Assembly (NCBI GenBank): GCA_003345595.1
Contig: PRDI01000082.1
Span: 1-11,490, forward strand
Source: Candidatus Thorarchaeota archaeon
Lineage (GTDB): Archaea > Asgardarchaeota > Thorarchaeia > Thorarchaeales > Thorarchaeaceae
Length of the DNA: 11,490 bases
Direction of reading: 5' to 3'
Shown here: positions 2,650-8,533 of the stretch, piece by piece
Layout: every line of letters begins with the position of its first letter
Numbering within the stretch: the stretch's first letter is position 1
Program-made: the position numbers and the translations under genes
The notes under the pieces: model-generated
The model's database searches: none
What the model saw: only the letters and a program-made list of their open reading frames with translations
Told to the model about the DNA's origin: nothing

Positions 2650-2685
2650 CCCATGCGACGTGCAGCCTCTACGGAGGCCTCAATA

Positions 2686-3507
2686 GTGAGCTGGCTGGCC
2701 AAGATCGTGAATGGCACACCGGATGAATTTGTGCATGCAAAGCTGGTCAAATACGGAATAGGGACGCACCCGGGCCCAAGCGCTGTCATAGGACTGAGTC
2801 AGGGACGTATCACGTTCAAAGCAGACTTCGATCACGAGAAGATGTTTGCCCAAGCCTATCTCAAGTTTGCACCTGCTGGCACCCAGAAGGTCACGGGAAC
2901 CATCATCACCTATACTGACCGTAGATCGGTCTATGAGCATCTATCACTACCTCTCTCTTGGACCAAGACCAAGGGAGAAGGTGCTTCCGTCTTCAAGGCG
3001 AAGATCAGCGAGGTCGCGCCAATCGAGGACCTCCGCGCATTACTAGATGTGGACGACCCCACGACTTTCCTACTCCTGTCCATGACCCCAAGGGACGGAA
3101 CCAAGCCTTGGTCTATCGCGACAAAGTCATCATTCCCAAAGGCATCTTTCGCAAAAGCTGGCGGAAAGCCGGATGAAGAGAAGGAAAAACCCGAAGAGGT
3201 GCCTGATGAGGACAAAGCAGTCAAGCCGAAAGACCCGACTTTCGCGAAGGGAGCTTATGCCAACACACCTGACATAGTTCGCTACCTACTCCAAGAGGCT
3301 GTGCCGGACGTCGCATCTGACGTGACTCCTAAGACAAAAGACATCCGTATAAGTAACGAAATAGTGATTGAGGAAATCATGGTCCCGGAGGACAGCGCAT
3401 TGTCTTTCTCTGAGAAGAGGAGGATGGCGAAGAAGAAGGGCAAGCTCGTTAGGAGAATCACGATTGATGGGAAGGAGCACATCAAAGAGTTTCAGTTCGT
3501 GGCATGA
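2686..3507 (+). CDS. Conserved archaeal hypothetical protein, 273 aa
   Basis: GGAGG at 2673-2677 precedes in-frame GTG 2686. The N-terminus (WLAKIVNGTPDEFVHAKLVKYGIG) and C-terminus (KRRMAKKKGKLVRRITIDGKEHIKEFQF) resemble, from memory, an uncharacterised archaeal family. There is an internal K/E/P/D-rich linker. Confidence 0.85.
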   Translation: MSWLAKIVNGTPDEFVHAKLVKYGIGTHPGPSAVIGLSQGRITFKADFDHEKMFAQAYLKFAPAGTQKVTGTIITYTDRRSVYEHLSLPLSWTKTKGEGASVFKAKISEVAPIEDLRALLDVDDPTTFLLLSMTPRDGTKPWSIATKSSFPKASFAKAGGKPDEEKEKPEEVPDEDKAVKPKDPTFAKGAYANTPDIVRYLLQEAVPDVASDVTPKTKDIRISNEIVIEEIMVPEDSALSFSEKRRMAKKKGKLVRRITIDGKEHIKEFQFVA

Positions 3508-3526
3508 TTCTTCGACTACCGCGACC

Positions 3527-3533
3527 TTTAAAA
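3527..3533 (+). promoter_or_regulatory. TATA box for the OST5-like gene
   Basis: TTTAAAA about 50 nt upstream of ATG 3583. GAGG SD-like motif at 3571-3574. Confidence 0.5.
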
Positions 3534-3582
3534 CGGCATTGCGAAGACCGAAGGCGAACTAGCAGCCGAAGAGGCCAAAACA

Positions 3583-3780
3583 ATGATGCAGATCTATTTC
3601 GAGGGACTCATATTATGGGTCGGACTGGCCTTCATCGTATTCGGACTGATGTCGTATGGATGGCTTGTGATACATGTTGAGCATAGCCGCCACTTCTCCA
3701 AGATGAAGGCTCTTTTTGCGCTTGTTCTGGGCTCATTGTTCATGGGCTTTGGCTTGCACTTCATGTTCCTCGGGCTATAG
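3583..3780 (+). CDS. Small 2-TM protein, OST5/TMEM258-like oligosaccharyltransferase accessory subunit homolog, 65 aa
   Basis: Two TM helices. TM2 LVLGSLFMGFGLHFMFLG matches my recollection of human TMEM258 LVASLFMGFGVLFLLLW. TM1 has the G-x5-W pattern (FGLMSYGWLV vs IGMFFTAWFF). Size is similar. It has its own TATA and SD. Confidence 0.72.
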   Translation: MMQIYFEGLILWVGLAFIVFGLMSYGWLVIHVEHSRHFSKMKALFALVLGSLFMGFGLHFMFLGL

Positions 3781-3881: not shown

Positions 3882-5081
3882 ATGTCAGACTTGAGGAGTT
3901 CGTATCTGTTGAGCGACCAAGACGTTGAAACTCTCGCAGCTGCCAGCGGACAGCGTTTGATTCGCGAGTTTGCCGATAAGTACGCGAATCTACGTGAGAG
4001 GTCTCGGAGAGTGCCCATAGCAGATGCGAAGAAGATAGCAGACGAGTATTCGTGTCCGCTTGAGATTGGCATCGTAGCCTACCTCATCAACTTGGACGGA
4101 ATAATGGGCATCAGGGAAGCAGTTGGCCTGCTCTCCTCCGAGCTCCAACGGCGTACGAACGTCGGTGAGGACGTACCTAATATTGGGGGAAACATCCTCG
4201 AGTTCTCGCTGCTTGAAGGCAGGTGGATAGAGTACATCTACAGCACATTCGTAAGGGAACTCGAACTCAAGACCAGAGAGCTTGCCAACCTTGAGGCATC
4301 GATTGACGTGGAAACACCCCCGATTGAGAAGGTTGTGTCAGTGGTCAACTCTCGAAACCGTCTGGCTGAAACCTTCGTGTCACCCGCGGTACTGGCGTGG
4401 CTAACAGAGCATTTGAAGTCGAATACTGAGGATGTCCTGACTGCATTCTGTTTGGCTGTCACCAAGTGGAAGCTGGCGACACTGAAGGGCAAGATGCTCC
4501 AGCTCCGACGTAGAAACCAAGCCTTTTTCAGAAGGTTGAAAGTCATCTTGGCTGCTGCATCAGAATCCGCCACGGCTGACGTTGTGGTGAAGAGAATCGA
4601 TGACATCATTCAAGCATTGGGTGCGGATCTGTCTAAGATGAGTGTCAGCTCGGTCGCTCACTTCATTCTTCATATTGCACCAAGACCTATGGGGAGAGGA
4701 GATAGGTCGCGGTATGTTGATGTGGGAATGAGCTCGACACGCGGTAACAAGACCGAGCCCGACATGGCATCGCCATTCGACTTTCTCGAAAGGGATGTAC
4801 AGCTTGCTCGGCGCCGCACGGGCACTGAGCGGTCGGAGTACCTGTCCCAGCGGATTAGCCGGGTTATGCGCGTCCTCAGGTACCAAGGTAACACTACAGC
4901 TCAGGTCATTGAGAAGTGCGTTCTCGAACTCACGAACAGGTTACATATTGACAAAGCATATGCTGCAGGTGTTATCGAGAGGTCTAAGCAAGAACTCGCA
5001 AACACACCGTCCGATCGACAGGATGACATCGCTGTGAAGCTAGTGTTTGAATATATCAGCACATATGCCTTTGAGAGGTGA
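3882..5081 (+). CDS. Hypothetical, predicted mostly alpha-helical soluble protein, 399 aa
   Basis: Long ORF with natural composition and a coiled-coil-like stretch (VRELELKTRELANLEASI). It contains a G/R/P-rich motif-like segment, PRPMGRGDRSRYVDVGMSSTRGNKTEPDMASPFDFLERD. The stop codon sits inside the GAGGTGA SD of the next gene. Confidence 0.85.
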   Translation: MSDLRSSYLLSDQDVETLAAASGQRLIREFADKYANLRERSRRVPIADAKKIADEYSCPLEIGIVAYLINLDGIMGIREAVGLLSSELQRRTNVGEDVPNIGGNILEFSLLEGRWIEYIYSTFVRELELKTRELANLEASIDVETPPIEKVVSVVNSRNRLAETFVSPAVLAWLTEHLKSNTEDVLTAFCLAVTKWKLATLKGKMLQLRRRNQAFFRRLKVILAAASESATADVVVKRIDDIIQALGADLSKMSVSSVAHFILHIAPRPMGRGDRSRYVDVGMSSTRGNKTEPDMASPFDFLERDVQLARRRTGTERSEYLSQRISRVMRVLRYQGNTTAQVIEKCVLELTNRLHIDKAYAAGVIERSKQELANTPSDRQDDIAVKLVFEYISTYAFER

Positions 5082-5082
5082 C

Positions 5083-5859
5083 ATGACTGTGGATCAGGGA
5101 CCTCTCTTCTGGCTGCTGGACGTACAGGCATACAGATACGACGTAGGCGTCCTGCGTGAGACCGACCTGAAGGGAAAGGCCTTGATCCTCTCTCGACAGC
5201 TATGGTCTGCCATTCGGGGGGAGAAAGTGATTTCGATATTGATAGGCCCTGGCGTGTTCAGGGGAGTGGGCATCTTGGGAAACAGACGGGTCGATGTACT
5301 AGAACCACTCTGCGCATTGATGTTCGACCCCTCCGCACTAAGAGCCGATGAGCCCATCCCACTTGTCGACATAATCTCGCCTGAGGTAATCGACCCCATG
5401 GCTTCGCGAAAGACAGAGGAGATCATGACTGTCATCCGTCAGCTAGTGGTTGAACGTGGGAATGTCTTGGCGGCCGAAACGCTCCTCAAACTCAGGCCAG
5501 AGGGCGCTATACCCACGACTGCCTTTGCATTGGACCTCTTGAAGAAGATCAACGTTGCTCATGTTTCTGGGGTTCAGAGAGCCCAGTTCATCCTTGGAGG
5601 AACAAACGGACCTCTATATCGTCCGTTCGCAGGTTGGTATCGAAAAGGAAAGTACGACCATTCCGACCAGATCAAGGTGATGGCCACACCATTCTCAAAG
5701 TTCTGCAGTTCAGTGGACATAGACATCATGTCTGACTGGACCATAGTCGAGAAAGCCGCTACGAGCAGCAGTACTGGCATTGAGGCAATACGGGACGAGT
5801 ACGATGAAACCCTCGATGTCGTCAGAAAGAGCTCGAATCTGTTTGTCTATGAACTCTGA
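5083..5859 (+). CDS. Hypothetical protein, about 258 aa; possibly a degenerate PIN-like alpha/beta fold
   Basis: ATG 5083 (or GTG 5089) follows GAGGTGA (5075-5081), which overlaps the upstream stop and suggests translational coupling. The PIN resemblance (FWLLDVQ...LILSRQLWSAI...VLAAETLL...AIPTT) is weak and judged by eye only. Confidence 0.8.
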   Translation: MTVDQGPLFWLLDVQAYRYDVGVLRETDLKGKALILSRQLWSAIRGEKVISILIGPGVFRGVGILGNRRVDVLEPLCALMFDPSALRADEPIPLVDIISPEVIDPMASRKTEEIMTVIRQLVVERGNVLAAETLLKLRPEGAIPTTAFALDLLKKINVAHVSGVQRAQFILGGTNGPLYRPFAGWYRKGKYDHSDQIKVMATPFSKFCSSVDIDIMSDWTIVEKAATSSSTGIEAIRDEYDETLDVVRKSSNLFVYEL

Positions 5860-5911
5860 TACACCGGAAGAGTCATCAGCCGCTTGACGGGCCACAGACG
5901 AGGCAGGTACC

Positions 5912-8533
5912 TTGGAGGTCGCAGACTCAGACATACAGAGGAAACTCGCGAAACCCTACACAGTCTTGCTTCGCAGTGGCAGGCAAGAGCTGACTACCTT
6001 AGTGGGTGTCTTCTCTGATGTTCTGCGTGACAGGCAGCATGCTCAGATAACTGGCACCATCGAGTATGGCTACAGGGTGTCGGGCCTACTTGAAATCAAG
6101 CGAGCTTGGTTTGTGAAGTACAACAAGCCAGTATACTTCCAGGAGAGGGAGTTCCACGACATACTCAGGAAGGCTAAGAATATCCTTGTCCCAAACGAAG
6201 AGACGCCGACATTCATGGCAGACCTCAGGGACATGTTGTTGCGGCTCCAAGCTGTGGCCCCTCAAGTCGTTCCAGTCTGTCAACATTGCCTCCGTGAAGA
6301 CAGGCTTACCGTGCTGTCGCGAAGAAATGCCGTCAAGGTGTCTGAAACCCAGGTTTCATGCTTGGCATGCGCGCAGACCGATCTCAAGACTGATCTCAAG
6401 AACATGGGCGTCAACCTATCTCATGCCATGGTGGAGCAGCTCGAACGTCAGGTTTCTCGAATCAGGTCTGTGCCAAGGATAATCGACATGTTGACCCCGG
6501 GTTTCGATCCACTCCAAGAGCGAGACCTCACACTGTTTGACACAATCGCAATCCAAGAAGAGGAGGACACCCTACCGGTTTCCAGTCTGTCTGTCCCCCC
6601 TGAGATGATCGATGTCCTTCATTCAGAGGGTATCGAGAAGCTCCTGCCCGTTCAAAGCTTGGCAGTGGAGAAGGGCCTTCTCACCGGTGCCAACCTGCTC
6701 GTTGTTTCATCGACGACTTCTGGCAAGACCCTCATAGGAGAAATCGCCGGTGTGCCCAAGGCCATGAGTGGAAAGAAGATGGTGTACCTTGCGCCGCTGG
6801 TCGCTCTCACCAATGAGAAGTATGAGCAGTTCAGGAAGAAGTACAAGCATCTCGGGCTGCGCACCGGGATAAGAGTCGGCATGTCACGCCTCGATGTGGG
6901 TAGAGAAGGCAAACCCATTGTCGACACCGACATATCCAAGGCAGACATAGTATGTGCAACTTACGAAGCACTCGATATGGTATTCCGGTCTGGTGAAACC
7001 GGGATTCTCGGTGATGTTGGGACTGTTATCGTGGATGAAATACAGAATCTCGGTGACCCGGAGAGGGGACCAGAACTGGATGGACTGGTCGCCAGATTCA
7101 GATTCCATGCACCACACGCACAGATCCTATGTCTGTCAGCAACAGTCGGATCACCGTTGAAACTGGCAAAGGAGTTGGACATGACACTAGTCGAGCATGT
7201 CGGCAGGCCTGTTCCATTGGAGCGTCACCTCGTGTTTGCAAGGAGCGACGAGGAAAAGCGTGAACTGATACGCAGACTGGTCGTCGAGGAGTTTCGAAAT
7301 GTGAGCAGTGCAGGCAACAAAGGGCAATCGATCGTGTTCACTTACTCTAGGCGTCGCGCCCATGCGCTGAGCGACTGGCTGCGCGAGAGTCACGTATCGG
7401 CTGTGGTATACCACGGAGGGCTAACATACAATCGAAGACGTAGCATTGAAGCATCATTTGCGAAACAGCGCTATGCCTGCGTGGTGACGACCGCTGCATT
7501 AGGAGCTGGTGTCGACCTTCCTGCTTCGCAGGTGATCTTCGAGTCTCTAGCAATGGGCGCCGACTGGCTCACCAACGCCGAATTCGAGCAGATGCTTGGC
7601 CGTGCAGGACGTCTGGGTAAACACGATAGAGGACTCGTCTTTCTTCTTGTGCAGCCCGAAAAGAAGTATCATGGTGGACAGGACAAGACTGAGGACGAGA
7701 AGGCGGTGGAACTGCTGAATGGGGTTGTCGAAGATGTCGAACCAACAGCCGATGTTGAAAGCTGTGCAGAACAGGCTCTGGCTATGATTTGTTCAACGGG
7801 GTTAGTCGAGCTGAGAGAGGTTGCCAAGGCATACAGCAACTTGCTTTCCGCCACGATACCCGCCTCGGACGCACTCAAGTACTTGGTGCGGAATCACATG
7901 ATTCGCGTTCACGATGGTGGCGTCTACCCAACTGAACTGGGAAGGGCGACATCGATTTCATTCCTCACTCCGGCCGAGGGCTACCGAGTTCTCACACTGG
8001 CCGGCAGCATGGACATCATGGACATAGCCATCAAACTTGAGCCATTCGAGAACGTGTACCTCAGTGCTAGACTGCAAGCCGAGGTGGACGCGGCATTCAA
8101 GACTCACATGCCCACGCGACTATTCTCTGGAGTAATCTCAGATATAACAAGCCTCAATCGTCAATCTGGAAACGTCAGAAGGCTACCCCAGTGGGTGCTA
8201 GACGTCTTCACACGATGGACCTCAGAGCTATTGGACTGCAGATGTCGCGATTTTCCTGAGTGTGACCATGGGATGATTAAGCTAGGCAGATGGATTGTGG
8301 ATCGGCGAAAAGAGGGACTGAACCCCTCTGGCATAGCAAAGCAACTGCATGACCACTTTGAACTGTGGAGCTATCCTGGAGACCTCTTCACATGGTTGGA
8401 CTCGCTGATTCACAACCTCAAAGCCGTTCAGAGGATAGCAGCTGTTGCCGGCAAGACTGATCTGAGTGTGGAAATAGAGGAGCAGGTCGCCAAGATAGAG
8501 CGACCGCTCCAAGCGGTTGGGAAGAATCAGTAA
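5912..8533 (+). CDS. Archaea-specific Ski2-like SF2 helicase (ASH-Ski2 / COG1202 type) with C-terminal DUF5814-like Cys domain, 873 aa
   Basis: Q motif LLPVQ, motif I SSTTSGKT (6707-6730), Ia YLAPLVALTNEKY, Ib TYEALD, II DEIQ (7034-7045), III SAT, RPVPLERH, IV FTYSRR, YHGGL, V TTAALGAGVDLPA, VI QMLGRAGR. The long N-terminal extension with CQHC/CLAC and the C-terminal CRCRDFPECDH and YPGDLFTWLD motifs separate it from Hel308. The TTG start is uncertain. Confidence 0.93.
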   Translation: MEVADSDIQRKLAKPYTVLLRSGRQELTTLVGVFSDVLRDRQHAQITGTIEYGYRVSGLLEIKRAWFVKYNKPVYFQEREFHDILRKAKNILVPNEETPTFMADLRDMLLRLQAVAPQVVPVCQHCLREDRLTVLSRRNAVKVSETQVSCLACAQTDLKTDLKNMGVNLSHAMVEQLERQVSRIRSVPRIIDMLTPGFDPLQERDLTLFDTIAIQEEEDTLPVSSLSVPPEMIDVLHSEGIEKLLPVQSLAVEKGLLTGANLLVVSSTTSGKTLIGEIAGVPKAMSGKKMVYLAPLVALTNEKYEQFRKKYKHLGLRTGIRVGMSRLDVGREGKPIVDTDISKADIVCATYEALDMVFRSGETGILGDVGTVIVDEIQNLGDPERGPELDGLVARFRFHAPHAQILCLSATVGSPLKLAKELDMTLVEHVGRPVPLERHLVFARSDEEKRELIRRLVVEEFRNVSSAGNKGQSIVFTYSRRRAHALSDWLRESHVSAVVYHGGLTYNRRRSIEASFAKQRYACVVTTAALGAGVDLPASQVIFESLAMGADWLTNAEFEQMLGRAGRLGKHDRGLVFLLVQPEKKYHGGQDKTEDEKAVELLNGVVEDVEPTADVESCAEQALAMICSTGLVELREVAKAYSNLLSATIPASDALKYLVRNHMIRVHDGGVYPTELGRATSISFLTPAEGYRVLTLAGSMDIMDIAIKLEPFENVYLSARLQAEVDAAFKTHMPTRLFSGVISDITSLNRQSGNVRRLPQWVLDVFTRWTSELLDCRCRDFPECDHGMIKLGRWIVDRRKEGLNPSGIAKQLHDHFELWSYPGDLFTWLDSLIHNLKAVQRIAAVAGKTDLSVEIEEQVAKIERPLQAVGKNQ

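Follow-up and report, generated by a model that had tools for sequence, protein, structure and literature searches.

In the yeast oligosaccharyltransferase (OST), Ost5 and Ost1 together form subcomplex I: both helices of Ost5 pack on the single helix of Ost1, and Ost5 helix 2 is connected through lipids with the first Stt3 helices (PMC7226087). The yeast Ost5 gene is non-essential and is needed for full activity, and the exact role of the protein is 'not clear' (PMC7226087). In human cells, TMEM258 (PDB 6S7O chain C, 8B6L chain L) is a two-helix hairpin of 79 aa that resides in the ER. Homologues of Ost4 and of Ost5 (TMEM258) have also been described in archaea, where they were found 'in most Asgard archaeal classes' (Eme et al., 2023, Nature 618:992, PMC10307638).

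The locus considered here encodes a 65-aa protein, P0001, and lies in a stretch of 11,490 nucleotides, which was analysed as a whole and is called the window (Table 1). P0001 is best explained as a Thorarchaeal homologue of the OST subunit Ost5/TMEM258 which, by analogy with yeast, would work with a subcomplex-I-like Ost1 partner beside STT3; we give this reading a probability of about three in four. That OST5-like proteins had already been reported in Asgard archaea, as the original prediction stated, is borne out by Eme et al. (2023; PMC10307638), and P0001 thus joins a known family as an ordinary member. As far as the published description of the Asgard Ost5 homologues goes, they are the same kind of protein from the same phylum, and nothing essential differs. 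Relative to that description, the present analysis adds the promoter, a loop motif that is invariant in the Thorarchaeal family, a survey of 301 Asgard genomes, the conserved synteny with a gene for a 284-aa protein, and a long, sequon-rich form of the protein. Its value is confirmatory, as one well-documented Thorarchaeal example with Ost1-, Ost3/6(DC2)- and STT3-type partners in the same genome. More generally, homologues of non-catalytic OST subunits in Asgard archaea bear on the idea of a multi-subunit, translocon-linked N-glycosylation machine that predates eukaryotes, and the coordinates, the conserved promoter, the family alignment and the loop motif form a basis for experimental tests of complex formation.

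Table 1. Features of the P0001 locus (positions in the window) and genes at other loci that are discussed in the text.
Feature	Position	Strand	Size	Basis
Upstream neighbour, soluble protein	2653-3504 (longest frame from 2611)	+	about 284 aa	
Archaeal promoter: BRE-like ccgcgacc, then TATA box TTTAAAA (3527-3533)	3519-3533	+		sequence and conservation
Shine-Dalgarno-like GAGG, 8 nt 5' of the ATG	3571-3574	+		sequence and conservation
Coding sequence of the Ost5/TMEM258-like protein P0001, stop codon included	3583-3780	+	65 aa	
Helix 1, residues 2-34, with G21-x5-W27	3586-3684	+		AlphaFold2 model and 36-sequence alignment A2
End of helix 1 and short basic loop HVEHSRHFS, residues 31-39	3673-3699	+		alignments A1 and A2
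Helix 2, residues 40-64, with G50, SLFMGFG, then H59-F60	3700-3774	+		alignment and AlphaFold2
SLFMGFG, residues 51-57	3733-3753	+		
Downstream soluble proteins (overlapping ends), then DEAD/Helicase_C/DUF5814 helicase	3882-8533	+	399 aa, 270 aa; 873 aa	
STT3/AglB, same genome	contig C75, L037:9330-12122	+	930 aa	
OST3_OST6-type (DC2-like) protein, same genome	contig C75, L037:4877-5377	+	166 aa	
P0024, Ost1/ribophorin-I homologue, same genome	contig C56, L039:1504-4458	+	985 aa	
GT4 (AglH/Alg7-type) gene, divergently paired with that of P0024	L039:255-1370	-		
Long form of the Ost5-like protein, family f22	L049:5703-6212	+	170-184 aa (both loci)	
Long form of the Ost5-like protein, family f22	L050:6048-6599	-		

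As had been proposed from the sequence, the host is an Asgard archaeon, and it is of the Thorarchaeota type. All 30 related loci, each on a contig of one genome per species, come from archaeal MAGs, and those that carry a name belong to Candidatus Thorarchaeota, Promethearchaeota or Hermodarchaeota, all of them Asgard; the others are entered simply as 'uncultured archaeon' or 'archaeon'.

In the source genome (2.73 Mb in 129 contigs, 83% complete), the P0001 gene is present as a single copy. Its start is kept as M[LM]Q among relatives, and its orthologues in 30 species are 48-94% identical. When the 90 nt preceding the start codon were lined up across the 30 related Thorarchaeota loci, the element '(g)accg[ta]ga[ct][cg]TTTAAA' was found about 50 nt upstream in nearly all of them, the same distance (~50 nt 5' of the start codon) as for the P0001 promoter, and GAGG(T) was found 6-10 nt upstream of the start, again in nearly all loci. 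Because this layout is conserved, the upstream elements are not due to chance; together with the conserved start, they indicate that the gene is real, monocistronic and under purifying selection. It thus has a conserved promoter and a ribosome-binding site to itself, and the TATA box and Shine-Dalgarno sequence first noted for this single sequence recur in nearly all of the 30 related species. The translation and the AlphaFold2 hairpin likewise agree with the two-helix membrane protein of 65 aa that had been read from this open frame. The suggestion that so small a gene would be missed by annotation did not hold: the exact protein is already present in NCBI nr and in JGI/IMG. Its relatives are all named 'hypothetical protein' by NCBI, and the automatic names given to them by JGI (TRAP-type C4-dicarboxylate permease small subunit, MnhC antiporter subunit, threonine/homoserine efflux protein) were rejected, as they look like artefacts of hydrophobic composition. 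One orthologue from the same genus (G002:C61:19241-19432) contains an in-frame TAA within the match, which may be a sequencing error or the mark of a pseudogene.

Several searches connect P0001 to Ost5. Ost5 (PF05251) is its best Pfam family, with an E-value of 3.1e-5 (next family, E 0.1) and a score of 24.6 bits that falls slightly below the gathering cut-off of 27.4 bits, a threshold tuned on eukaryotic sequences. The first homologues all match the same family (8/8; best E 1.1e-6), and a precomputed PF05251 match is attached to 58 of the 104 clusters of the family. Profiles of 8 (A1) and 36 (A2) sequences were compared with the PDB sequence set, which holds 177,635 distinct sequences. Human TMEM258 (6s7o_C) is the sole significant match of either profile (E 5.7e-6 for A2, whose next match is at 0.21), and this match strengthens with the depth of the profile, from E 0.16 with one sequence to 5.9e-5 with 8 and 5.7e-6 with 36. 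The alignment is nearly full length, with both helices in register and with W27 and GFG paired with their human counterparts. The profile match to Ost5 that had been anticipated was thus obtained.

Searches of larger collections place the family among archaea. The 36-sequence profile retrieved 104 clusters from 5.8 billion proteins, and all the named ones are Asgard; no named eukaryotic Ost5 was retrieved at E <= 0.01 in this search. The nearest clusters in the ESM Atlas are archaeal 'Ost5 domain' clusters and one plant Ost5 cluster. A single-sequence phmmer search of 1.84 billion representatives returned only 7 relatives. An NCBIfam match of P0001 was weak and was rejected as spurious. Taken as sequence evidence, these results make it likely, with rather high confidence, that P0001 is homologous to Ost5/TMEM258.

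The AlphaFold2 model, built from the 36-sequence alignment, consists of the two helices listed in Table 1 (mean pLDDT 92.4). In a Foldseek search, human TMEM258 ranked second and third among 350,542 chains (TM 0.73, rmsd 2.1 A, 23-28% identity), with an E-value of 0.8 that is statistically insignificant. In VIA, human TMEM258 and yeast Ost5 (6ezn_E) tied for the top place (Z 8.0 over 65 residues), a score also reached by unrelated helical hairpins. The model superposes on TMEM258 and on yeast Ost5 over 60-65 residues; this fold match is non-discriminating. The structure comparison of the predicted model is thus compatible with Ost5 homology and is no proof of it, since a hairpin fold cannot discriminate.

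The closest comparison is with human TMEM258, the longer of the two proteins; they are about 22-28% identical, and the ends of P0001 are shorter. In both, helix 1 contains G-x5-W and helix 2 contains SLFMGFG. In P0001, G21 and W27 align with the G and W of the human protein, and its SLFMGFG, which sits exactly where the original prediction had placed it, aligns with the SLFMGFG of human helix 2; the two patterns taken from the human sequence are therefore both shared. They are also kept within the archaeal family, where W27 and G55 never vary and at least 90% of the 36 sequences of alignment A2 have G57, so that the loss of the motif among homologues, named beforehand as evidence against the idea, was not observed. 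The two proteins differ in the loop, where the human protein has YEVTSTKYTR and P0001 an HVEHxRH-type motif, and in a conserved histidine (H59) that follows GFG in P0001, unlike human TMEM258. They would also differ in location, as P0001 would sit in the cell membrane. Yeast Ost5 (PDB 6EZN chain E) has the same hairpin fold as P0001 at 14% identity, and the sequence profile does not match it. Its partner Ost1 contributes a single helix, a role that the single-pass Ost1 homologue of the Thorarchaeal genome could match.

The positive charges of R36, K40 and K42 in the loop lead to the prediction that the loop faces the cytoplasm. The N-terminus of P0001 is acidic or neutral. From the sequence, the predicted topology is therefore a cytoplasmic loop with both termini on the non-cytoplasmic side.

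The same genome encodes candidate partners for such a protein. STT3/AglB was detected with an E-value of 5.9e-54, and the OST3_OST6-type (DC2-like) protein scored 34.9 bits, which is above the cut-off and concerns the membrane part only. The Ost3/6-like gene is located ~4 kb upstream of STT3, with folate and glycine-cleavage genes between them; the two are near each other and do not form one operon. The Pfam model Ribophorin_I finds no match in the source genome, its own Ost1 copy included, and matches a ~985-aa protein in four other genomes of the family. The orthologue in the source genome, P0024, is 51% identical to that protein. A profile of 25 P0024 orthologues matches 8whn_A, the crystal structure of the OST1 cytoplasmic domain of Prometheoarchaeum MK-D1, at E 1.2e-7, and PF04597 is carried by several of the orthologues. 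Because its orthologues match Ribophorin_I/PF04597 and their profile matches 8whn_A, P0024 is taken as an Ost1/ribophorin-I homologue. An Ost1-like partner, whose absence had been named as an argument against the prediction, is thus found together with STT3 and an Ost3/6-like protein. No Ost4 was found in the source genome with the Pfam model. The claim that the P0001 gene does not lie next to STT3 or Ost1 proved correct, since both are on other contigs.

P0024 begins with an N-terminal hydrophobic segment, followed by a large ectodomain that is rich in N-glycosylation sequons and includes FKBP and Ig domains; a single membrane helix around residue 840 then leads to a helical tail of ~120 residues in the cytoplasm. 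The outward-facing FKBP domain and the Ig domain precede the ribophorin-like part. Its orthologues are named 'FKBP-type peptidyl-prolyl cis-trans isomerase' by NCBI. As a separate observation, TMEM258 and FKBP11 are both present in the human PDB entries 9n9j and 9ygy.

Around P0001, the gene order is an upstream gene of 298 codons, the hairpin gene, genes of 399 and 270 codons, and the helicase gene, and these five genes keep this order in all 30 Thorarchaeal loci (30/30) in which the region is assembled. In other Asgard families (designated here by f and a number), the upstream gene can again adjoin the hairpin gene: f2 and f12 have the pair in tandem, and f9, the largest of these families, has it in divergent orientation. 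The two downstream genes come after the hairpin gene in f12, f13, f15, f19 and f21. The 284-aa protein is found in 188 of the 301 sampled Asgard genomes. Its phyletic pattern and that of the hairpin overlap in part and disagree in both directions: in f3, the 284-aa protein is present in 4/4 genomes and the hairpin in 0/4, whereas the hairpin is present without it in f22 (20/21 against 0/21) and in f27 (10/11 against 0/11). The adjacency is thus read as inherited order or shared regulation, and an obligate partnership of the two proteins was rejected on the basis of this mismatch. The three neighbours of 284, 399 and 270 aa have no match in Pfam, NCBIfam, PADLOC or the PDB sequences, and a search of the ESM Atlas returned nothing for the 284-aa protein. 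No fold convincingly similar to the AlphaFold2 model of the latter (pLDDT 86.5) was retrieved (Foldseek E >= 0.02); the best VIA match of this model (Z 6.7) covers one ferredoxin-like subdomain.

The loop, with HVEHSRH at residues 31-37, is the best-conserved part of the Thorarchaeal family: all 36 sequences have H31 and S39, and at least 90% of them have V32, E33, R36 and H37. Among more distant Asgard members, only H31 and E33 of the motif persist, with other residues in place of H34 and H37. The original prediction had pointed to the His-rich loop and to a histidine inside helix 2, H59, as departures from the human sequence; both are seen in the alignment. It had added that they might bind metal, a part that finds less favour below.

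The hydrophobic composition of membrane mini-proteins can inflate scores. An Asgard-specific two-helix protein with a Gly- and Phe-rich second helix could thus resemble Ost5 by chance or convergence, with no common descent. This would accommodate the very short length of P0001, its Pfam score under the gathering cut-off and a fold search that is insignificant and tied with unrelated hairpins; it would also suit the loop motif, which is absent from eukaryotes (human TMEM258 was compared), and the weak six-frame matches (E <= 1) that the Ost5 model gives in 9 of 14 control genomes. However, the match is reciprocal and specific, with Ost5 ahead of the next Pfam family by more than three orders of magnitude and TMEM258, the only PDB sequence match, separated from the next by more than four. 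Chance resemblance would also have to produce helices that align in register with W27 and GFG conserved and a TMEM258 match that improves as members of the family are added, in a family limited to an archaeal phylum that also has homologues of Ost1, Ost3 and Ost4. We consider this explanation unlikely. It is quite unlikely, too, that P0001 is an Ost5 homologue which works elsewhere than in OST, as a membrane anchor or assembly factor for the products of its conserved neighbours. No OST gene is nearby, and the conserved neighbours are soluble proteins and an RNA/DNA helicase; the 284-aa gene adjoins in 30/30 Thorarchaeal loci, with an adjacency that survives the flip of orientation in other Asgard families, and in at least five further families the hairpin gene is succeeded by the two downstream genes. 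Yet these neighbours have neither membrane segments nor a known membrane link, the hairpin gene has its own promoter, and the phyletic disagreement described for f3, f22 and f27 runs in both directions.

Two further possibilities concern the loop. It could form a metal- or pH-sensing site from H31, H34 and H37 with E33, and so have a regulatory role that is absent from eukaryotic Ost5. The conservation of H31, E33 and H37, together with the presence of H34 in nearly all Thorarchaeal members, would suit such a site, and with the i, i+3, i+6 spacing where helix 1 ends, their side chains would share a single face. This proposal is nevertheless highly improbable, as the reduction of the motif to H31 and E33 outside the Thorarchaeal family argues against it, no metal-binding family is matched, and a single hairpin would offer few ligands unless it oligomerised. 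With a slightly better but still very low likelihood, the conserved His/Glu/Arg loop and the adjacency of the 284-aa gene could point to a cytoplasmic adaptor or regulator, specific to Asgard archaea, that docks on the glycosylation/translocon machinery; if true, such docking via P0001 would be without eukaryotic counterpart.

The preferred reading of P0001 as an Ost5/TMEM258 homologue in OST suggests the following arrangement, which is modelled on the yeast and human complexes. Both ends of P0001 would lie outside the cell and its basic loop in the cytoplasm. Its two helices would pack on the single membrane helix of P0024 to form a subcomplex-I-like module, which would dock, partly via lipids, beside the first helices of STT3 and would stabilise or position Ost1. 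The module would have no catalytic role. The HVEHxRH loop would most likely touch lipid head groups or the stretch of Ost1 that borders the membrane on the cytoplasmic side.

A survey of distribution and synteny across Asgard genomes had been proposed as a check on the original prediction. The neighbourhood is partly kept, as described above, and the family profile finds one copy of the gene in 221 of the 301 sampled genomes and in 72 of the 90 that are of high quality. This distribution fits the presence in most Asgard classes given in the published statement of Eme et al. (2023; PMC10307638). No Ost5-like match was found among the 301 sampled genomes in families f3, f14, f17 and f20, and few were found in f5. 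Within its own family, 73 of 76 genomes have the gene, as do 65 of 68 in f9, and it is near-universal in several further families. In f22, the Ost5-like core forms the C-terminal portion of a longer protein (Table 1), which begins with an N-terminal membrane segment and continues with a Thr/Asn-rich linker full of NxT sequons that leads to the two-helix core. As far as its sequence indicates, this long form fits an outside-facing N-terminus of the core.
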